Shown: positions 6,592 through 37,462 of the stretch, piece after piece | Numbering within the stretch: position 1 is the first letter of the stretch | Layout: each line of letters opens with the position of its first letter | NCBI GenBank assembly: GCA_002293825.1 | Contig: DBDW01000001.1 | Location: forward strand, 3,314 to 67,313 | Reading direction: 5' to 3' | DNA: 64,000 nt | DNA from: Candidatus Magasanikbacteria bacterium UBA922 | GTDB taxonomy: Bacteria > Patescibacteriota > Patescibacteriia > Magasanikbacterales > UBA922 | The notes under the pieces: generated by a model | Database searches by the model: none | Seen by the model: the letters and a program-made list of their open reading frames with translations, nothing else | What the model was told of the DNA's origin: nothing | Made by a program: the position numbers and the translations under genes

Positions 6592-6709
6592 ACTTCAAAT
6601 TCAAAACTGTAACTAAAATCTTAAAAATTTTAAAGAAATCAATATATCTAGTTTTATTTTTTAATTATCACATTACGTTTTGACAGACAAACGTTGGATT
6701 CATCGCTTG

Positions 6710-6783
6710 TCGGGCTGACACGACTTGAACGTGCGACCTCATGACCCCCAGCCATGCGCTCTAGCCAACTGAGCTACAGCCCG
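6710..6783 (-). tRNA. tRNA-Pro (anticodon GGG)
   Basis: Reverse complement folds as a cloverleaf: acceptor CGGGCUG/CAGCCCG, D-arm GCUC..GAGC, anticodon stem CAUGG/UCAUG with loop CUGGGGG (G37), T-arm GCACG UUCAAGU CGUGU, discriminator A. CCA is not encoded. Confidence 0.85.
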
Positions 6784-24467: not shown

Positions 24468-27400
24468 TTATACGCTCTCCCCCGCAAACAACTCAGCCTG
24501 TTTCAATACGGTATCAGTTGCAATTTCTTGCGCATCCGGTGGATAGCCATATTGATTGAGCAAACGCTTAACCATAATACGCATACGCGCACGGGCTGAT
24601 TCTCTTAGACTCCAATCAATTGATGCATTTTCTCGCACGCGTTGTACCAAAATTCGGGCCAGTTCTCTCAAGGTATCGTCACCAAGTACTTTTCCCGCAC
24701 TTTCATTCATTACCAAAGCATCATAGAATGCAATCTCATCTTCAGTCAATCCTAGATTTTCTCCACGCTTATCAGCTTCTTGTACTTCATGCGCGAGCTT
24801 GATCAACTCATCGATTACTTGCGCTGCAGTTAATAAATTATTTTGGTATTTCTTGATTGCCGCATGAAGTATTTCTGAAAACTTTTTGCTCTGTACCGCA
24901 TTCTTTTTTCCTCGTGTTCTGATTTCATCATTTAATATTTTCTTGAGTAATTCAAGCGCAATATTTTGTCGTTTCATGCCGCGAATTTCTTCCAAGAATT
25001 CTTCTGAAAGAATAGAAATATCTGGTTTTTTGATTCCGGCAGCATCAAAAATATCAATCACCCCTTCCGACACCACTGCTTTGTCTACGATTTGTCGGAT
25101 CGTAGTCTCAATATCCATATCTTTTCCTCCCCCATCGCTCGCCAGTTTGGTAAGTCGTGCTTTGACTGCTTGGAAAAAGGCTACTTCATCTCGAATTTCA
25201 ACTGCTCTCAAATTTGGCATCGCAAGCGCAAATAATTTTCCGAGCGCATTCACTTCTGTGACAAATCGTTCTTTGTGATCTAGATTCCCAAGCAAAAAAT
25301 CTTCTACTTCAAGAATCGCAACTAATTTTTGTTTTGCTGTGCCGGTAAAATATTTTGAATAGTCTACATCGTGTAAAATTCCCTGCACAATTTCATATTT
25401 AGCAAGCATGTGCGGCACGGTATCCACTGTCTGATCGGCAATCATACCACCCGTTCCACCACTCTCAGTATAAACAGCAAGCGCTTCCTTGAGATCACTT
25501 GCAATGCCGATATAGTCGACAATGAGACCACCTGGTTTATCCTTAAATACTCGATTCACACGAGCAATCGTCTGCATGAGATTGGCTCCCTGCATAGGCT
25601 TATCAATATACATGGTATGAAGGCAGGGCACATCAAATCCCGTAAGCCACATGTCGCGCACAATCACGAGTTTCAATGGATCTTTAGTATCCTTGAATCT
25701 GGTCGCCAGATCTTTTCGATCTTCTTTGGTGGTATGATGCGGTTGCCAATCGGTCGGATCGGATGAAGATGTAGTCATGACGACTTTAAGTGCCCCCTGT
25801 TTCTTGTCATCACTATGCCATTCTGGTTTTAGTTTTATAATCTCTCGGTAGAGCTCGACTGCAATACGACGACTCATGGCCACAATCATTGCTTTTCCTT
25901 CGAATACTTCTTGTCGTGCTTCAAAATGCGCGACCAGATCACGCGCAATGTCTTGCAATCGTGCATGGTGTCCCACAATTGCCTCAAGCTGTGCCCATTT
26001 TGCTTTCGCTTTTTCGCTCACGGTTGATTCTTCACTTTCGAGTACGGCATCGACTGCACGATCAAGTTCTGCTTTTTTGTTTTCATCAAATCCAATTTTT
26101 ACCAATCGTGATTCGTAACTGATAGGAACCGTCGCCCCATCCACGACTGCTGCCTGGATATCGTAGACATCAACATAATTACCAAAGACTGCGCGAGTAT
26201 TGGCATCATTTTTTTCAATCGGAGTGCCAGTGAACCCGATAAACGACGCATGAGGTAGTGCATCTCGCAGATATTTTGCAAATCCATACGTAGTCTCTGC
26301 ACCCGTTTCAGTTGTTTTCACTTTTGCCCGTAATCCATATTGACTTCGGTGTGCTTCATCGGCCATGACAATAATATTTTCTCGATCCGAGAGTTTGCCA
26401 TACTCAGTCTCCCCTTCAGCCAGTGAAAATTTCTGAATGGTGGTAAATATAATGCCTCCACCTGATGTTGCTAATAGTTTTTTCAAATGTTCACGATTTT
26501 CTGCCTGGACCGGCTCCTGACGCAAGAGTTCGGTCGCTCCGGCGAAGGTATCAAATAATTGTTGATCAAGGTCGTTTCGATCCGTAATCACCACAATTGT
26601 CGGATTATTGAGTCTCTGCACAATCTTTCCTGCATAGAAAACCATGGATAATGATTTTCCTGATCCTTGCGTATGCCATACCACTCCAGCCTTCCGATCA
26701 CCTCGCGTTGCACTCAGTGTAGAATCGAGTGCTTTTTCTACCGCAAAATATTGATGATAGGCTGCAACTTTCTTGATCGTGCGAGTATAGGGCAACCCTG
26801 CATCATCAAATTTTCGTTCTTGTTCGTAGACCGTAAAATTTCGAACGAGATCAAGCAATCGCTCAGGCGTAAGCATTCCCAGTACTAATGTTTCAATCTC
26901 TGGCACCGTACGTTTCTCATCACGTGCTCCATCAATCGATTTCCACGCGAGGAATCGATCAAATCCGCTTGTGATCGTACCCATACGGGCGTCGAGACCG
27001 TCTGAGATGACGAGGATTCCATTGTACGCAAATAAATCAGGAATTGCTGATTGGTAATTGGTAAGCTGAGTAAATGCTTTGTGCACCGTCGCCTCTTCAT
27101 TCTTCGCATCTTTGAGTTCAATCACGACGAGTGGTAATCCGTTTACAAAGAGTACTACATCAGGAATTTTGTCTCGTTCCAGTCCCTTGATATAGAATTG
27201 ATTAGTTGCAAGCACATCATTATGTGACACCTGCTCCCAATCAATCACCCGCACTTCCCGTCCGCGCATATGTCCCTCTTCAAGAATTTCTACGGTTACT
27301 CCTTCTACGAGCAGGCGATGTACCGCACGATTATTTTCTACGATATTGTCGGTCTGGGTAGCAGTATGAATAATCTGATTCACTGCAAAGTTTCTCGCTT

Positions 27401-27575
27401 CTTCGGGGATATCAGGATTGAGCCGAGCGATTGCAGTGACCAGTCGATCACGAAGTATTACCTGCGAGAGATCCGGTCGCTCGGGTTCGAGTGCCTCGGG
27501 ACTGAGGTATGAAAAACCTGCTTCGCGGAGAAGGTCGAGGGTGAGTTGTTCGATTGAGGATTCGTTGAGGGTCAT
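24468..27575 (-). CDS. hsdR: Type I restriction enzyme R subunit
   Basis: 1035 aa with SF2 helicase motifs (TGSGKS, DEAHRSQ) and N-terminal nuclease region. Confidence 0.95.
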
Positions 27576-27576
27576 A

Positions 27577-28884
27577 TTATTTCATTTTAACAATCAAATC
27601 TAATACCTTCTTAAAGGTTTCACTATCAGGCAACAGATCTTGCAACGTTTTAACCTCTTCCAAAAAATCAGTGCCATCTTTTTTATTTCTTGACTTGTCC
27701 AACTTCTCTTTTGCATTAGCAACCTCTTCATAAGGTGATTGATAAAGCAAACACAAATTATCTGAAATAAATTTAACTATATCAACTTTAGTCTCAGGTA
27801 ATTTACTCTTAACACTAACGTTTACAACATCTTCTAACAAAAACTTCGTGTGATTTCTTATTACAGCCGCGATTACAGCCTTAGAGGCATATTTTTCATT
27901 AAGTTTTCTCTCGTGACTATACTGTTTTGCAGCCAAACCAACTAAAAACAATAGTGGTGATGTTAGTGTTAATCTATATAATGTCGTTTCTATTCCAGGA
28001 TGACTATCCCTATGAAATAAAATAAACAACATAATGGAGAGTAAAATTATACCTAGAACAAAAACACCCAACCAAATCAAAGAACTTATACGTAATAATT
28101 TTTCTCTCTTTTGAAAAGAATTTGCAAAACCTGTATCTGTGATCAAAGCTGTGATTTTTTCAACTTCTGACTTATTAGTATTTATCTCTTTAAGCCCTTG
28201 CTCAGACTCGTCTTTCATTTTTAAAACAGTATCCTTTACTTGTTTTATATCTTCAACTAGTTTAGCTGATTGATCACGAAAAGATTTTATTTCAACCAAC
28301 AAAGCATTCGATTGTTTCTGCAAGTCGACTGACTGATTAAGGATTGCTTGAAGCCCGTTATTAGTATCATTTATTTTAGCATTAACAGCAACAAAATCTT
28401 CATAAGCTTTTTGAATTTGGGAAATCTTATTTTGTATCTCAACAAATTGTTTTTCAATCTCAGCTAAACTTTGCTGAGATTTAGTCTTTATATTTTCGAC
28501 ATCTCCCTTAAAACTTGCCGCGGTGGAAACCAAAGCTTCGACCTCACTATTACGTCCTTCAATTTTTCCTTTAATATTCTCTATCTTTTGTAAAAATTCA
28601 TCAATTTTCTCTACATTTGGACGAGCTTGCTCAACATTATTTTTTATTTCTGATAAATATGTGTTGACTTTTTCTTTAATATTTTCAATTACTACCAATC
28701 TCTCACGAGAATCATTTGATATTTTTTCAATATCAATATTTCTAGTCTCGACTGCTTTAAATGCAGCATCATATCGAACACTAAGTGTATTAATTTCATC
28801 AAGTAAATTTTTTGCTTTCTTATATTGATTTCTTAACTCTTGTAATTCTTGTTGAGTAATGTTTTGACTATTTGTATCATCCAT
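27577..28884 (-). CDS. Hypothetical 435 aa protein: about 255 aa N-terminal coiled coil, two adjacent TM helices, and a 140 aa C-terminal domain, embedded between hsdS and hsdR
   Basis: Heptad-rich K/E/Q/N/I N-terminus; [28 protein letters not shown]; 5 nt gap to the hsdS stop, 1 nt gap to the hsdR start. Confidence 0.7.
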
Positions 28885-28889
28885 ACTTT

Positions 28890-30125
28890 TTACTTAAAAA
28901 TTTTGTTTAATATTTTATCTCTTAATTTTGACAAAGTTTGAATTTCAAAAAAATTTAGTTTTATCTTTCCAAATTGAGAAGAGACAGTATTACTAAATAA
29001 ATTAAGAATATCACTGTTTGGTATATTGATTTCAATATTTGAAAAAACGCCTGTATTTACATTTAGAGTTGCAGAACCTCCACCGCCGATCATTTGCAAA
29101 TCACTACTCATTGATTTCAATACAAAATACAAATATTGTAAAATATGTTCATCTTTAGGAATAATTGAATTTATTTGCTGATTTGTTTGAGAAGCTTCTG
29201 TGGTTATGGAAACTAAACCAACGGTTGCAATACAACTTACACAAATCGAATTTTCTGGCACATATTTATTTCTTTGTGTATCTGCACCAGATAGAGTCAA
29301 TGAATCTTCTGTTTTAACTATAAACATTTGACCATGCATGTCTGGAATTTTAATAAATGGAACTTGTCCTCCAAAAAATTCTTGATTTGATTTTGACGGA
29401 GTTTTGCCGCAGACAATATCTCCGATATCCCCCAACTTCCCAACCCTCCATCCCTCCGGAATCATCCCAAGCTCAGAATCAACCATCTTCCCTGTCGCAC
29501 CTGGAAATCTGAAATCCACAAACCATTCTTTGAAGAGTGTCTGTGCGATACTTTCGAGTGTATTATTTTCTTTTCGCAGCAGCTCGATCTTGTCGTCGAG
29601 ACTTCCGAGGATTGCGGCGATTTCGCGTTGTTCGGAGAGAGGTGGAAGTAAAAATTCATAGTCTCCAATTTTTGTAGGTGACGTATGCTTAACAGTACTG
29701 CCCGTTGCAGAATTCACAATAGACTTCTGATAATCTCTTGTTCTCATCAGATAGTAAATGAAATCTTTAGATACTTCATCTTCATTAACTTCTACAAGAC
29801 CAACTCGTTGATTATGCAAAAATATTTTATCACTTTTATCTGGTATTAATGCGGGGAAACCTAAGGTATCACCCTCCTTACTCAAATCTGTCATTGTTAC
29901 CACCAAATCCCCCGCCTTTAAGACGTATTCATCAGGAATTGGCCCATCATAGTACTTTTTGCCATCCTTCCAGCCTCCCCCAATCAAAAAATTACCTGGT
30001 GTAAGTAGAATATTTTTTGTCTCCTTAGTTGAAAAATATTCACCTTTAAAAGCAAAACCATGTTTTATACTGACTATGTCACCAAGCTTTATTGTTTTCC
30101 AATTTTTTGATGAGGTGAGGGGCAT
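28890..30125 (-). CDS. hsdS: Type I restriction-modification specificity subunit (two target-recognition domains)
   Basis: 411 aa with duplicated TRD architecture and conserved central and C-terminal spacer helices. Confidence 0.9.
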   Translation of the reverse strand: MPLTSSKNWKTIKLGDIVSIKHGFAFKGEYFSTKETKNILLTPGNFLIGGGWKDGKKYYDGPIPDEYVLKAGDLVVTMTDLSKEGDTLGFPALIPDKSDKIFLHNQRVGLVEVNEDEVSKDFIYYLMRTRDYQKSIVNSATGSTVKHTSPTKIGDYEFLLPPLSEQREIAAILGSLDDKIELLRKENNTLESIAQTLFKEWFVDFRFPGATGKMVDSELGMIPEGWRVGKLGDIGDIVCGKTPSKSNQEFFGGQVPFIKIPDMHGQMFIVKTEDSLTLSGADTQRNKYVPENSICVSCIATVGLVSITTEASQTNQQINSIIPKDEHILQYLYFVLKSMSSDLQMIGGGGSATLNVNTGVFSNIEINIPNSDILNLFSNTVSSQFGKIKLNFFEIQTLSKLRDKILNKIFK

Positions 30126-30127
30126 AT

Positions 30128-30634
30128 TTATTTAACACCAATCATTTTTCTAAATTCATCTGCAATTTTTTCTTCTTGCAACACCAAATCTGTTCTCATC
30201 TTTTCAGCAAGTTCATCCCATAATCTCGCATTTGGAATTTCACCTATTGGATGCGCCTCATACACAAAGTCAACAAAAAGCTTTCTATAATCATCTCGCA
30301 ATATGTCCATATTTTTACACAGATTCTTTGGTAAATAATGCTTCTTGGCATGATAGTATCTTATAAAATCATTAAATAGATTACTTGCTTTTGTTCGACG
30401 TTCAAATTCTGCATCCTGAGAACCATCATCTTGTTGAAAGATTGACACAAGCTCAGACATGGATTGCTTTAAAGATTCCATTTTTTCCATCAGACTATCA
30501 AAAACCTCTCCACGCTTTGTATACAGTCCGGATTCTTTGATAGCACGAATTTGTGTTCGATGATTCATCCATCCAGTAACTACAGCTGCCACCAAACCAG
30601 AACTAAACACTGATAATACAATAGTTTGCAAGTC
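30128..30634 (-). CDS. Hypothetical protein with N-terminal TM helix (169 aa), embedded in the R-M locus
   Basis: Start at MDLQTIVLSVFSSGLVAAVVTGW; the ORF-track start at 30700 is probably too early. Confidence 0.5.
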   Translation of the reverse strand, partial: DLQTIVLSVFSSGLVAAVVTGWMNHRTQIRAIKESGLYTKRGEVFDSLMEKMESLKQSMSELVSIFQQDDGSQDAEFERRTKASNLFNDFIRYYHAKKHYLPKNLCKNMDILRDDYRKLFVDFVYEAHPIGEIPNARLWDELAEKMRTDLVLQEEKIADEFRKMIGVK

Positions 30635-30641
30635 CATATAA

Positions 30642-30890
30642 TTAATTCCAACCCATTTTATACAACATAAAACCTCCAACAAGGAGAACAAAAAGTCCAA
30701 TTAAAACTTGCCCCCACCATATTTGATACCATTTTTCTGTACGCCCCGCACCATCATCAAAACTATTTCCTCGTGCAAAAGTATTTTCCCCTTCATCTTG
30801 AATTCCAACATCAAATCCTGAAAAAGAGTTGTTAATAAATTTATTATTTTTTCCCCTATTGAGGACGCCCACACTCTTTTTTTGTGTCAT
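30642..30890 (-). CDS. Hypothetical tail-anchored small membrane protein (82 aa, C-terminal TM)
   Basis: WYQIWWGQVLIGLFVLLVGGFMLY hydrophobic C-terminus; 7 nt upstream of the next gene. Confidence 0.4.
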   Translation of the reverse strand: MTQKKSVGVLNRGKNNKFINNSFSGFDVGIQDEGENTFARGNSFDDGAGRTEKWYQIWWGQVLIGLFVLLVGGFMLYKMGWN

Positions 30891-30977
30891 AAAATTTATT
30901 TTAAGATTCTGTTCTCACTATATACGTCTTAAAAAACTTCTTAATCGTCTCAACTGTTACACCCCTTATCTCGCTCA

Positions 30978-32168
30978 CTAATTATTTTTATTAAGCGATT
31001 GTGGAATAAACCCATTTTTCTCAAGTGATGTAATCACACTTCGTAATAGATAATTATTATTGAATCCAATCGTATAAATACGACCATTCTCATTGATTGA
31101 TTGAAGCATTTTTTTATCCAACAATTTTCTAATAATGCGCGATCGTTGCACTGAAGATTCCTGACCAATCACCTTCTCAAGATCTGCAGATTTAATCGTC
31201 ATTTTCTTGGAACGAATGACTGCTTTCAGAATTTCATACTCTCGGTCCGTGATCATCTTCTTTTCTAGTGCGTCAGTAATAGATGGGAGGAGGATTTTCT
31301 CGACCACATAGTGTATATTCAATAATCGATCAATTTTTTCTATTTCATCTTTTAATCCTCCAAGCACATACTCACACCACGCAAGCACATGCTCTGTTTT
31401 TCCTGTATCAGCGAGTGCCAGCATGTCATAATATTTTTGGCGATCCATACAGAATATAGCGGTCGGATTGAGAATCCGCCCCGCCTTTACTTGAAAATTT
31501 TGTTTGATAAGCATTGCATAGGTAAACATGCGTACCATACGACCGTTTCCATTATCAAATGGATGTACCCAGGTCATGCGATGATGAGCAAGTGCGGTGA
31601 CCAATAAATCATTCTGCAAATCTACCGGAGTATTCACAAATCCTAGTAATTCTTCGAGATATGTCGGTACTTGTATAGGATCAGGAAGTACTACAGTAGC
31701 ACCCTTAATTGAAACAGGTGTCTTTCGCAATTGACCTGGATATTTTGAACCCTCACCATCTGGGGGAGGTGTAAGCCCATCCACAATAATTTTATGAATT
31801 TCTGAAAGATGTGCTCGGGTAATTTTTGTACCATTTTTTATTTGTGCGTCAATAAATTCGATCGCGCGATCAATATTAAAAATTTCCCGTAGTTTTTCTT
31901 CGGTAGTATCTTTAGGCACTTGATCAATAATTTTTTCTACAAATTCAGCAAGCGTAGTTCGATTTCCCTCAATACGCACTGAACCCAAACTTTCCATCCA
32001 CTGAAAAATTTCTTTGAGTTGAAAAAAGATATATGGAGGTACCGCACCACCTAATCTCTTAACCCGTAACTTTTCTAGCTCAACAATAATGCGCGCTAAA
32101 TTCGACCCCCAACTAGGTTCAGGAAGTATCAAAGGGATATCTATAAATGTAACATTTTCATTTGACAT
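30978..32168 (-). CDS. Fic/DOC family protein (AMPylase-type), embedded in the type I R-M locus
   Basis: HPFDNGNGRMVR Fic motif; 396 aa. Confidence 0.9.
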   Translation of the reverse strand: MSNENVTFIDIPLILPEPSWGSNLARIIVELEKLRVKRLGGAVPPYIFFQLKEIFQWMESLGSVRIEGNRTTLAEFVEKIIDQVPKDTTEEKLREIFNIDRAIEFIDAQIKNGTKITRAHLSEIHKIIVDGLTPPPDGEGSKYPGQLRKTPVSIKGATVVLPDPIQVPTYLEELLGFVNTPVDLQNDLLVTALAHHRMTWVHPFDNGNGRMVRMFTYAMLIKQNFQVKAGRILNPTAIFCMDRQKYYDMLALADTGKTEHVLAWCEYVLGGLKDEIEKIDRLLNIHYVVEKILLPSITDALEKKMITDREYEILKAVIRSKKMTIKSADLEKVIGQESSVQRSRIIRKLLDKKMLQSINENGRIYTIGFNNNYLLRSVITSLEKNGFIPQSLNKNN

Positions 32169-32291
32169 AATTTAACACCAATACTTGATAAAATAGCTCT
32201 ATGTAGCTATTTTTTAGCTGAATTTACTATAGCATTATTTATCAAATTATGCAAGAGGTTATTTAACATCAATACATCATTACTACTATCT

Positions 32292-32509
32292 AATGGCAAC
32301 ATTTTTCTTTAATTTGTTGCCATTTAACCAGAGAAGTCAACAAAATTTTACCTTATTTTAGCCAAAATTTTGCATCTTAGTTAAGTATTGATGTGACACT
32401 TAACCAAAAGTAATTTTTATTGCTTAATCTAGCTAAATTTAATCTTCAATGGCAACAATATCGCCTATTTTGTTGACCTTACTCACCTCAGTGGCAACAA
32501 AACTATAAA
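32292..32509. repeat. Cluster of (A/T)ATGGCAACA motifs: three direct copies (about 32292, 32448, 32491) plus one inverted copy (32316-32325) forming a palindrome, inside a 550 bp AT-rich noncoding region
   Basis: Motifs read from sequence; additional hairpins at 32193-32215 and 32380-32404. Confidence 0.5.
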
Positions 32510-32686
32510 ATATCTCATTGTAGCCACATTTTTTGCCTGATAGTTAAAGTCTTTACCTATTGATCAGCAGAGGAGAAAAACTATCCTTTTTTACAAAATG
32601 TGGATAACATCAGTAATTATTGACTTTTTAAGATTTTTTATGTATAGTGTATATACATTTGGCGTCCCACATACGTGGGAAGCTCC

Positions 32687-32718
32687 GCTCCTCGCTCCGG
32701 CGAGGAGCTGTTTTTTTA
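32687..32718 (+). terminator. Strong + strand rho-independent terminator (GCTCCTCGC-TCCG-GCGAGGAGC then T7) with no + strand ORF upstream
   Basis: Perfect 9 bp GC-rich stem and T7; overlaps the stop codon of the convergent mazF-like gene. Confidence 0.65.
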
Positions 32719-33130
32719 TTCAAACTGTTTCCGAAATTCAGTTCGCACACTCATGAATTGTTCACTATCGAGCTTTGATTTTTTGCGCAATAACCGTTTC
32801 GCGCTAATTACCCTTCCTTGAGAAATATTGACACTTCTCACCTCTTCATCAATCACCACATGCATCTGATACCACGGTTTTTCTTCTTTTATCTTCGTAC
32901 TTGTCGGCAAAACAAAGCACATATCTCTCGAATATTTTTTGAGAATCAGCACTGGTCGTTCAAACAAATCATTTTTACCATCCACCTCATATCCAATATT
33001 TTTTTCCCAATGCCGCCCACCATATCTCACGCTCTTCAAAATATACTTCTCTTTTCTCTTGATTCAGATGATGACGAATCTTCTTTTTTGTCCATGCGAC
33101 AAATTTTTCACCCACCTCATACGGAGTCAT
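32716..33130 (-). pseudogene. MazF/PemK-family endoribonuclease toxin gene interrupted by a +1 frameshift in an A7 homopolymer (plus-strand T7 at 32999-33005)
   Basis: The upstream frame encodes ...REVYFEEREIWWAALGK, then a stop. The downstream frame continues NIGYEVDGKNDLFERPVLIL...MCFVLPTSTK.... Removing one A gives a continuous 137 aa MazF-like protein. Confidence 0.6.
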
Positions 33131-33152
33131 ACCTGTAGTAAATAGTAAAAAA

Positions 33153-34697
33153 CTATATCTCAATACCCACTTTTTTCAACTGTTTTTTGATCTCCTCATT
33201 AAGCCTTCCCTCTTCCTCGATCTGCCCTTTGAGCTCTACCGCAAGCTTCCCCATTTTTTCCTCAAACGGAATTCCATCATCAATCGCATCAGTAATCCCA
33301 ACATAGCGACCCGGAGTGAGTACATAATTGTGCTTTTGTACGTCTGCAAGTGTTGCAGATTTAGTGAATCCTTTTTTGTCTTCATACTTCCCATCCTTCG
33401 TTCTCCATTCGTGATAGACACCTGCCACCATTTCTATATCCTCATCACTAAATTCTCGATGCGTACGATCTGCCATGAATCCTACATCTGATGCATCGAT
33501 AAATAATATCTCACCCGTACGTTTCCGATCACCATTTCCGACACGTTTTCGCGAAATAAACCAAATACATGCAGGAATACCAGTGTTGTAGAATAATTGT
33601 TTTGGAAGCATGACAATACAATCGACCAGATCCGCATCTACGAGCGCTTTTCGTATCTCACCCTCACCACTTGATTGTGACGAGAGCGATCCATTTGCAA
33701 GCACACACGCCATTACTCCATGTGGCGAGAGATGGTAAATCATATGCTGAAGCCACGCAAAATTTGCATTGCCTGCCGGAGGCTTGCCATATTGCCAGCG
33801 CGGATCATTCTGTAATAATTCCGCACTCCAGTCTGAAACGTTGAATGGCGGATTTGCCAAGATATAGTCTGCTTTGAGATCCTTGTGTGCATCATTGAGA
33901 AATGATCCTTCAGTATTCCATTTGATTCCACTTCCATCAATGCCACGGATTGCCAAATTCATGCGCGCGAGGCGATACGTGGTCTGATTACTTTCCTGTC
34001 CATAGACTGCCAGATCATCAATTCTCCCCGCATGAGATTTCACAAATTTTTCTGACATGATAAACATTCCCCCACTTCCACAGCATGGATCATAGATGCG
34101 TCCTTTGTAGGGCTCAATCATTTGTACCATCAACTTTACAATTGATTTTGGTGTATAGAATTGACCACCTTTTTTTCCTTCAGCATTAGCAAATTCTCCG
34201 AGGAAATATTCATAGACGCGACCCAATAAATCTTTTGATTTTGCTTCTTCATCTCCGAGTGCAATATTGCCAATAAGATCAATCAATCCTCCGAGTGAGC
34301 CTTTATCAAGATTTGGCCGAGCAAATACTTTGGGCAAAATTCCTTTGAGTTCTGGATTGAGTTTTTCTATTGCTTCCATGGCGCGATCGAGATCTTCTCC
34401 AATCGTCGGCAATTTTGACCGACTATGCAGAAATGACCAGCGTGCTTCTGCTGGCACATAAAACACATGTTCTGCTCGGTATTCATCTATGTCTTCTGGA
34501 TTTGCACCTGTTCCTTTTTCTTTTTCTAGTGTCAGTTTAGCATGAAGTTCTTCAAATGAATCAGAAATATACTTGAGAAATACCAATCCAAGCGCGACAT
34601 TTTTGTATTCTGCTGCATCAATGTTTTTGCGGAGTTTATCCGCTGCTTTAAACAACGTTTTTTCGAAATTTTCTACTGGTTTTTTTTGTTGAGCCAT
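33153..34697 (-). CDS. hsdM: Type I restriction-modification methyltransferase subunit
   Basis: N6-adenine MTase motifs: LANPPFN (NPPF), DPCCGSGGM (motif I). Start at MAQQKK. Confidence 0.95.
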
Positions 34698-34788
34698 AAT
34701 AAAAAATAGTACTCTCATAGTAGCACCCTGCAGTATATGCGTCAATTTATTCTACTTACCTAAAATCCGCATATTTCAGCTGATTTTC

Positions 34789-36935: not shown

Positions 36936-36975
36936 CAAAAAACCCTGTACCGTTCTGGTACAGGGTTTTGTGTTT
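36936..36975 (+). terminator. Rho-independent terminator (CCCTGTACC-GTTCT-GGTACAGGG then TTTTGTGTTT); its T-tract overlaps the 3' end of rnpB on the opposite strand
   Basis: Perfect 9 bp stem read from sequence. Confidence 0.6.
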
Positions 36976-37377
36976 CACACGATTCCTATAAGCCGAATTT
37001 TGTTCCCAGCTTGCGCCGGGTGATAATCATTTATCTTGTCCTACTATTACTAGCAGGATCATACACGAACTAACTTTTCGAATCCCGAAATGGGGAAACG
37101 CTGTTCTTTCTCCAGGTAGGGTTTACCGCCATACTGTCTTGCGACAGATGTAGTGTGGTAGCATTGATACGGCGCATATGCTGAACCTATCAATACCTCC
37201 ACACTCTTTTCACCTTTCCCCTGAATCACGAGGATTCAGAGTAGTATTGTCTCTGTGGCACTGTCCCGCATACGATCTCGCGACCGCATGGATGGATGTT
37301 ATCCACTACCCGTGTTCTTGACATAATATCAAGAGGAGTTCGGACTTTCCTCCCGTAGGGGCGATTATCCAGAATCG
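36971..37377 (-). ncRNA. rnpB: RNase P RNA (bacterial type A)
   Basis: 14 bp P1 helix between GTTTCACACGATTC (5') and GAATCGTGTGAAAC (3'). GGGAGGAAAGTCCGAACTCC matches the P4 5' strand. CAGTGCCACAGAGACAATAC matches the conserved P10/11 region. Also GGTGAAAAGAGTG, GGCGGTAAACCC, and ACAAAATTCGGCTTAT matching the P4 3' strand. Confidence 0.85.
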
Positions 37378-37462
37378 TGTGAAACAGGAGAAGGATAGCA
37401 CACGAATGCGTAGTTGTCAATCGATACAGTCCAAAAAAATTGAGAAATAAAAAATCTATGTT

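Follow-up and report, generated by a model that had tools for sequence, protein, structure and literature searches.

The locus

The stretch of DNA analyzed here, called the window, comprises 64,000 nt of the metagenome contig DBDW01000001.1 from Candidatus Magasanikbacteria bacterium UBA922; homologs of its genes carry names of Patescibacteria or of the candidate phyla radiation (CPR). On the − strand, hsdM (34745-33153) is followed, 22 nt after its end, by a mazF/PemK-like toxin gene (33130-32716), a gap of 546 bp and a gene for a Fic protein (32168-30978). Then come two small open reading frames (ORFs), hsdS, the gene for a coiled-coil protein and hsdR. The gap had been described, from the letters of the sequence, as one structured noncoding region of 550 bp and a candidate for a noncoding RNA (ncRNA) or RNA antitoxin. 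It is noncoding as proposed, with a longest ORF of at most 52 aa on either strand (32169-32715). However, it is a composite of three parts and not one 550-nt RNA, and the object of interest is a small-RNA (sRNA) gene of ~100 bp at its mazF end, not the 550 bp as a whole.

Exact copies of the Fic gene occur on contigs of three samples (JGI 3300005689, JGI 3300014773 and ENA ERZ761600), and the 546-bp gap is identical across them. Further copies of the gap region were not found within the window, nor were matches to it by blastn in collections of plasmids and phages or in a scan for tRNA and tmRNA.

An sRNA gene at the 3′ end of the mazF-like gene

A complete sRNA gene is predicted on the + strand at 32620-32718, with a promoter, two hairpins and a T7 terminator. 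The promoter (32620-32648) is of the sigma-70 type, with −35 TTGACT (32620-32625) and −10 TATAGT (32643-32648) separated by 17 nt (10/12 matches). The predicted transcript of ~62 nt (32655-32716, + strand) has its 5′ end placed from the position of the −10 hexamer and its 3′ end from the terminator. It begins with a 5′ single strand, ACAUUUGG, of which the final GG opens hairpin P1; P1, a linker CC, hairpin P2 and the U-tail follow. In P1 (32661-32684), GGC-G-UCCCAC faces GUGGGA-A-GCU, with a basal G·U pair. P2 together with UG-U7 (32687-32717) makes an intrinsic terminator, with GCUCCUCGC paired to GCGAGGAGC around a UCCG loop.

This terminator is the one seen in the original prediction. Its 9-bp stem (32687-32708), its loop of 4 nt and the TG followed by T7 are all there; the stem had been described as wholly GC, and only 7/9 pairs are G-C. 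It ends, as had been said, a predicted + strand transcript convergent on the mazF-like gene, and its U-tract overlaps the stop codon of that gene (32716-32718, − strand). The sRNA folds at −33.7 kcal/mol (z = −5.7). Both hairpins fold on the − strand too (−30.7 kcal/mol), and the U-tract is present on the + strand only. At the 3′ end of the mazF-like gene we found no terminator on the − strand, and in the gap region no tandem repeats.

Rfam 15 has no family at the sRNA, be it in a search of the gap with E values as high as 10, of the entire window at the gathering thresholds, or of 20 related loci. The sole sub-threshold match is to istR (17.9 bits for a threshold of 45), and it rests on the terminator. 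A peptide-coding role of the sRNA is unlikely: a 5′-proximal ATG occurs in 46/78 family members only and is absent from the window copy, and 14/46 of the frames reach a stop inside the RNA.

The MazF-like toxin

The toxin gene (32716-33130, − strand; Pfam PemK) is frameshifted, as originally reported, by an extra A (+1) in the A7 run at 32999-33005, which splits it into ORFs of 47 and 107 aa. When repaired, the product of 137 aa shares full-length identities of 83% (with P0121), 70% and 71% with intact proteins of 137-141 aa. Contigs of three samples, the window's own contig included, share the frameshifted sequence without a difference, and the shift is therefore a fixed mutation or a phase-variable tract and not an assembly error.

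The toxin is a true MazF with the MazF/PemK fold. Its subfamily (130-140 aa) is marked by an additional helix at the N-terminus and by the lack of an adjoining protein antitoxin. In a profile search of PDB sequences, the best matches are MazF, EndoA and Kid toxins (B. subtilis EndoA at 1.8e-5), and the invariant R58 of the family aligns with the Arg of the EndoA RPVLV motif, a catalytic residue. In the AlphaFold2 model (pLDDT, the predicted local distance difference test, 84.7), the N-terminal helix spans residues 3-22, with W13 and K17 invariant, and the top 50 Foldseek matches of the model are all MazF-type toxins (MazF, YdcE, MoxT). Neither PADLOC nor NCBIfam has a family for this MazF subfamily.

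Conservation of the RNA

Relatives of the toxin number 558 in species-representative genomes (one genome per species), and the best 80 loci were fetched, all from metagenome-assembled genomes of uncultured bacteria, mostly titled Patescibacteria or CPR (single loci are cited below by L numbers). By eye, nearly all fetched loci keep the same layout 3′ of the toxin stop; every close relative keeps the ~75 nt that follow the mazF stop codon, despite differing neighbors (hsdM-linked or RF-1-linked).

A raw alignment misaligns stems of unequal length, and for this reason the seed of a first covariance model, R1, was restricted to 13 homogeneous sequences; they came from another subgroup, with that of the window left out. 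R1 gives 64 matches, all antisense to mazF, and none in control loci with Fic only. In the window, its single match is at 32652-32719 (+), with 26.9 bits and E 0.004. A second model, R2, built from the R1 matches and with the window sequence inside its training alignment, finds an antisense RNA adjoining the toxin 3′ end in 71/81 toxin loci. All 78 of its 78 matches lie on the antisense strand, and there are none in 6 control loci.

In the alignment of 78 sequences fitted to R2, pairing holds in 96.0% of cells (67.2% in shuffles). Changes on both sides of a pair number 270 cells, against 70 in shuffles, and the covariation score is 0.708 (0.207 when shuffled, and at most 0.160 with slid partners). 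Double changes are seen in 12/13 modeled pairs: in P1 they affect 4/4 modeled pairs, with the basal G·U pair in 50 sequences, and in P2 both sides change in 8/9. Compensatory changes in P1 can be read among close relatives (TCCCA/TGGGA, CCAGC/GCTGG, CTCCA/TGGAG). Across related genomes, the RNA at the mazF end recurs with strong covariation; 32380-32640 is common to a single other locus, L012.

The strand can be told from the pairs and loops. G·U pairs occupy 77 cells and A·C 11 on the sRNA strand, and in P2 of L017 a U·G stands where the opposite strand would have C·A. GNRA or UNCG tetraloops account for 70/154 loops on the sRNA strand against 6/156 on the other, and the sRNA strand is the more stable one in 62/77 sequences.

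The promoter is conserved as well. At a fixed distance, at least 10/12 consensus matches are present in 73% of 63 members (3% of shuffles), with an exact TTGACA −35 in 34/63. Hexamers and spacing are kept among relatives and the spacer sequence varies. In the family, the −10 ends 1-3 nt before the first position of the model (3 nt in the window copy). The conserved elements of the RNA itself are the 5′ (U)ACAAAUGG, the junction CUCCGAG(A), and UCG with the U-run. In the window, the 5′ element is ACAUUUGG and the junction reads GCUCCGC where the majority has CUCCGAGA. The window sRNA displays the three traits that define the family: a match to the two-hairpin model, its own promoter, and an antisense position directly after a mazF-like gene with a long N-terminus.

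The RNA pattern is absent from viral contigs, and we found no description in the literature of such an RNA family for Patescibacteria. The family is large and, apparently, not described before. In L027, L050, L054, L056 and L086, a three-hairpin variant lies 3′ of mazF, with an extra, separate terminator hairpin after the CUCCGAG hairpin.

Coupling of the RNA to the toxin

In the flanks of 0.9-1.1 kb at ~80 loci, each neighboring protein family is confined to 3 loci or fewer, so that the toxin has no MazE-like partner there. The RNA does recur, with a fixed geometry in which the U-tract sits on the toxin stop codon (median offset 10 nt). In tandem modules each toxin paralog has one convergent sRNA (L058 852-1298 and 2477-2946; L044 2507-2966 and 3884-4320; L080 1848-2311 and 2483-2939), and the sRNA travels with the toxin into unrelated gene contexts.

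A reciprocal test used a pattern from the 5′ half of the RNA alone on metagenome loci. It yielded 66 loci, with a convergent mazF-like gene within 150 nt in 50. The others comprise 2 without room for a toxin, ~13 standalone copies whose promoter and terminator are intact, and one (L103) that converges on a Fic gene. Copies that lack a convergent toxin include those of L090 (3766-3824), L104, L110, L138, L149, L153 and L161.

In two otherwise different contexts, small genes with an RF-1 domain (ArfB-like peptidyl-tRNA hydrolase) lie near mazF-like genes (L014 4521-4922, L016 1137-1538, L017 2427-2831). Such neighbors may be relevant to the rescue of ribosomes stalled on cleaved mRNA. The module of L014 has GmrSD, DpnII and Mrr as neighbors.

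The rest of the gap

The features reported for the gap are real and non-random; most of them belong to DNA other than the sRNA gene. The middle part (32380-32640, −) is a relic upstream or control region of an absent module of HTH_17 and a small Fic/Doc protein, homologous to L012 2051-2301. In L012, which holds the closest mazF relative, the order is hsdM, intact mazF, 341 bp, HTH_17 (89 aa) and small Fic/Doc (143 aa). Window 33200-32380 aligns with L012 1510-2301 at 77% identity, and the match ends exactly at the L012 promoter TTGACA-17-TATACT and the start of the HTH_17 gene, which is why we assign 32380-32640 to the upstream region of a module absent here. Decayed HTH_17 or Fic genes were sought by tblastn of the L012 proteins against 31000-33300, which gave noise only within the gap. 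A stretch of ~66 nt, ATTGTTGCCATTGAAGATTAAATTTAGCTAGATTAAGCAATAAAAATTACTTTTGGTTAAGTGT, is almost identical between window ~32395-32460 and L012 2215-2280, with flanking coding DNA at only ~77%; such near-identity points to constraint or recent exchange.

The inverted repeat GTTAAGT-N11-ACTTAAC (32380-32404), noted originally and present, lies around the site where the lost HTH_17 promoter had its −35, now mutated. Similar GTTAAC boxes belong to other HTH_17-Fic modules; in L166 and L168, two or three of them (GTTAAC or GTTAAT) stand at the promoters. For both reasons it is a probable relic operator. HTH_17 (85-89 aa) and small Fic/Doc (140-143 aa) form a conserved two-gene module that resembles a toxin–antitoxin (TA) pair, with boxes overlapping its promoter (L012 2322-3026, L166 2501-3180, L168 2501-3183).

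The motif TGGCAACA has 8 copies in the window, 4 of them in a 210-bp part of the gap, for an expectation of 2.27 +/- 1.54; none of 100 shuffles reached 8. The palindrome described earlier consists of AATGGCAACA (32292-32301) and TGTTGCCATT (32315-32324), perfect as claimed, with a spacer of 13 nt instead of 14. Further copies of the motif are at 32450-32457 (as AATGGCAACA) and 32492-32499 (as AGTGGCAACA). Three direct copies of (A/T)ATGGCAACA had been listed; the copies exist, but the third reads GTGGCAACA and is not strictly of that form. These belong to the two distal inverted repeats of the same type, AATGGCAACA-N13-TGTTGACCTT (32448-32480) and GTGGCAACA-N19-TGTAGCCAC (32491-32527). A unit of ~120 nt at 32425-32560 has a diverged second copy at 32275-32395, which holds the AATGGCAACA-N13-TGTTGCCATT repeat (32292-32324). 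L012 has one copy of the unit; each unit of the window carries an inverted repeat of the TGGCAACA type.

In the first distal repeat, the core arms GGCAACA and TGTTGAC are identical in the window and L012, and the spacer is substituted. As the core arms are kept while the spacer differs, the repeats look like protein-binding sites, candidate operators. In the other fetched loci, TGGCAACA boxes are neither enriched nor clustered, and the HTH_17 relatives carry boxes of the GTTAAC type instead. The TGGCAACA boxes and the GTTAAGT/ACTTAAC repeat, counted at first as parts of an ncRNA, sit in a separate, DNA-level element. The two options offered beside the RNA in the original prediction, operator sites and a recombination junction, fit this relic HTH_17-Fic/Doc upstream region.

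The third part (32169-32270, −) is the promoter and leader region of the fic (SoFic-like) gene. It has three TG(T/A)TAAAT boxes (32261-32268, 32237-32244 and 32170-32177), the third abutting the fic start codon, and a candidate promoter TTGCAT-17-TATAGT (32226-32254). The hairpin AAAATAGCT-N6-AGCTATTTT (32190-32213) is present as described and belongs to this leader, not to an ncRNA. The boxes are kept 5′ of fic in L004, L005, L006, L008 and L009 (76-83% protein identity). In the close Fic relatives L004, L006 and L008, hsdM is only 100-160 bp upstream of fic, and alignment of the gap with those fic relatives is confined to the ~100 bp next to fic. The arrangement of the boxes suggests autoregulation, or a near-leaderless mRNA with a promoter TTGC(T/A)(A/T)-17-TATTAT. 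For annotation, what had been taken for one structured region of 550 bp consists largely of two promoters and debris left by recombination.

Neighboring genes

The type I restriction–modification (R-M) operon (24468-34745, −) is split by passengers: the mazF-like gene, the SoFic-like fic gene, two small ORFs and the gene of a 435-aa coiled-coil protein. The Fic protein (396 aa) matches PADLOC SoFic at 2.9e-38, and the coiled-coil protein has weak LmuB/JetC-like matches. In relatives, the same site of the operon holds other passengers (Abi_C, AAA_15/21, DUF4145, Hypoth_Ymh). The window also contains a bacterial class A RNase P RNA (156 bits; 36973-37380, −) and a tRNA-Pro(GGG) (6709-6783, −). 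A LOOT RNA (75 bits) occurs in a related Kaiserbacteria locus (L082 5065-5184, +).

Role of the sRNA

We favor, with a probability of roughly 0.6, the reading that the ~62-nt sRNA is the cognate RNA antitoxin of the MazF-like toxin, under antisense control of type I character, the rest of the gap being debris and control DNA. As no − strand terminator precedes the RNA gene, the toxin mRNA would read through that gene and gain ~60 nt perfectly complementary to the sRNA. The duplex between sRNA and mRNA would then trigger decay or silencing of the toxin mRNA. The nearly invariant junction and 5′ motifs hint at an additional layer in which a protein, probably the toxin, would recognize the RNA directly. 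The antitoxin or regulatory RNA of the original prediction survives as the best reading of the comparative evidence for the RNA at ~32620-32718, not for the 550 bp as one ncRNA. The window has a dead toxin gene beside an intact RNA gene, the order of decay expected for a toxin–antitoxin pair.

Several observations weigh against this reading. The transcript and both its ends are predicted from sequence, and the case for the antitoxin role is one of association. The R2 score of the window copy (46.6 bits; next match in the window at E 0.3) is inflated by its membership in the training set. The covariation counts are drawn from alignments fitted to the models, and RNAalifold on the raw MAFFT alignment gave no structure, the stems of unequal length being misaligned. 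Pairing of the sRNA with the 5′ region of the toxin is not specific to the cognate, which is no better than non-cognates (p = 0.24). Standalone copies amount to ~13/64 with enough flank and have no mazF-like gene nearby, and in L103 (500-1090) the sRNA diverges from a mazF-like gene and converges on the Fic gene. The near-invariant (U)ACAAAUGG and CUCCGAG are superfluous for a pure cis-antisense RNA; strong conservation of primary sequence is unusual for such RNAs. A possible precedent, the pair CjrA/CjpT taken up below, is linked to this toxin family by a candidate identification.

The same motifs lead to the first alternative, a type III-like mode in which the sRNA, once folded, would act on the MazF-like protein itself, as a bound pseudo-substrate or inhibitor, and the overlap would be incidental or secondary. 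The 5′ (U)ACAAAUGG, CUCCGAG and the closing pairs of both helices stay near-invariant at ~40% protein identity, a signature of protein recognition. Toxin and RNA are co-inherited one to one, the standalone copies retain promoter and terminator, and the family-specific N-terminal helix (invariant W13, K17) could have been added for RNA binding. The type III toxin ToxN has structural homologs in Kid, MazF and YdcE (PMC3401426). Yet tandem repeats are absent, the RNA gene is downstream and convergent instead of upstream in the transcription unit of the toxin, and the toxin is a canonical MazF/PemK, not ToxN, CptN or TenpN. CjrA, moreover, is described as type I (PMC10470494). We hold this mode possible, though doubtful. 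Its specific form is equally tentative: Patescibacteria might have a widespread, repeat-less type III-like module of a new architecture, serving as a TA or anti-phage system, in which a convergent, single-copy two-hairpin sRNA neutralizes a MazF-fold endoribonuclease by binding it via the CUCCGAG junction and the 5′ motif, helped by the N-terminal helix.

The copies that adjoin no mazF-like gene, ~20% of those found by pattern, could also indicate an independent trans-acting regulator beside which mazF-like genes merely tend to lie or insert; the conserved unpaired CUCC resembles an anti-Shine-Dalgarno sequence and could serve as a seed. The position of the U-tract on the toxin stop, with its small and fixed offset, argues against such independence, as do an RNA copy number that follows that of the toxin and the movement of the RNA with the toxin into unrelated contexts, in the same relative orientation in 78/78 cases. 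An independent regulator is thus improbable.

We give less credence still to a protein antitoxin encoded elsewhere, with an sRNA that would only tune transcription by collision of its promoter with read-through from the operon. Convergent promoters interfere by default, and the solitary MazF-mx of Myxococcus with MrpC is a precedent (PMC4803016). However, the conserved fold and motifs of the RNA would be left unexplained, and the flanks of 0.9-1.1 kb hold no candidate protein.

The last two alternatives are very improbable. The hairpins could be a 3′ stabilizer or terminator of the mazF/hsdM operon, or the leftover terminator of a deleted gene, with no separate RNA gene, as they fold on the − strand too and terminators are common at gene ends. 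Yet only the + strand has a U-tract, the same strand is singled out by the G·U pairs, the tetraloops and the stability of the fold, a positioned and conserved promoter faces the hairpins, the motifs between them are conserved, and standalone copies exist. A single long structured ncRNA over the whole 550 bp, with the TGGCAACA repeats as its helices, would suit an AT-rich, ORF-free region whose perfect repeat has favorable folds on both strands (z = −6.3 and −4.5). But 32380-32640 is found in no other locus than L012, upstream of a protein operon there, and the kept core arms, variable spacer and equivalent strands point to a DNA-binding site. A local duplication accounts for part of the region, the homologs of 32169-32270 are fic promoters without the rest of the gap, and Rfam has nothing.

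To our knowledge, almost no regulatory RNAs are described for Patescibacteria (CPR). Here, a well-supported RNA family is present in most loci examined and has a clear genetic partner. If the antitoxin reading is true, the sRNA would be the missing antidote of a whole subfamily of "orphan" MazF proteins that databases annotate as type II. As the modules are often among restriction and defense genes, they are candidate abortive-infection systems. A small conserved RNA–protein pair is easy to test in E. coli, and a relative is on a plasmid (pVir) of the cultivable pathogen C. jejuni.

Comparison with known systems

TA pairs with RNA antitoxins are already known as a kind; the present RNA family is absent from Rfam. 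The layout resembles that of type I systems with convergent antisense RNAs that overlap the toxin gene at the 3′ ends, like txpA/RatA and bsrG/SR4 of B. subtilis. As in these, the RNA has its own promoter, is convergent, overlaps the toxin 3′ end and stops at an intrinsic terminator. In txpA/RatA and bsrG/SR4 the toxins are small hydrophobic peptides, whereas here the toxin is a soluble MazF-fold protein of 137 aa, and the overlap is almost wholly in the 3′ untranslated part. Among the marks of type I, the sequence and its conservation predict a small antisense RNA transcribed from a separate promoter beside the toxin gene; perfect complementarity of RNA and mRNA would exist only if the toxin mRNA reads through, and a small hydrophobic toxin is lacking. 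Precedents for RNA control of enzyme toxins are SymE/SymR and RalR/RalA, type I systems with nuclease toxins; their RNAs, SymR and RalA, target the toxin mRNA in its 5′ or coding region. For a structured RNA beside pemK genes there is a precedent in Firmicutes, the pemK RNA motif, a 5′ cis element.

With type II systems (MazEF, PemIK), the toxin shares the MazF fold and the invariant Arg aligned with that of the EndoA RPVLV motif; unlike them, the loci have no upstream MazE- or PemI-like gene and no recurring neighbor protein, and the toxin has the extra N-terminal helix. In type III systems, the antitoxin is a tandem repeat array upstream of the toxin, with a terminator between, in one transcription unit (PMC3401426). 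The present pairs are like ToxIN, CptIN and TenpIN in that an RNA is the partner of a toxin with a Kid/MazF-related fold, and in their frequent position among defense genes (here a type I R-M operon beside SoFic; also L014). They differ in having no repeat array, an RNA that is single-copy, downstream and convergent, and a toxin other than ToxN, CptN or TenpN. A toxin of type II class, a layout of type I character and, possibly, a recognition like that of type III would blur the boundaries between the three types.

Members of the toxin family are also found by tblastn on plasmids of Campylobacterota. On pVir of C. jejuni 81-176, the gene of the MazF subfamily is full-length, N-terminal extension included (hhalign probability 99.1%, E 5.7e-19), and solitary: the plasmid annotation lists no other TA component and gives it no partner. 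At this locus (L170; pVir 30630-31120), a convergent extended −10 promoter, TTGATT-17-TGnTATAAT, lies 90-115 nt past the stop, and a two-hairpin antisense RNA with a U-rich tail can be drawn from it. The best match of the Patescibacteria RNA model to pVir has 12.9 bits (E 0.12) at a different position, and the CUCCGAG and ACAAAUGG motifs are absent there. Related toxin genes occur in CJIE4 prophages of Campylobacter and on plasmids of Nitratiruptor and Helicobacter. CjrA/CjpT of pVir is reported to be a type I TA pair whose antitoxin is an RNA (Shen et al. 2016, Mol Microbiol 101:909, as cited in PMC10470494 and PMC7826846). The MazF-like gene of pVir (WP_011117588.1; 30630-31034) may be the published CjpT. 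CjrA/CjpT is on a plasmid of Campylobacterota and the window pair on a chromosome of Patescibacteria. If CjpT is indeed the pVir member of the family, RNA control of this toxin family would already be demonstrated, and the Patescibacteria RNA would represent a divergent and much larger branch of it.

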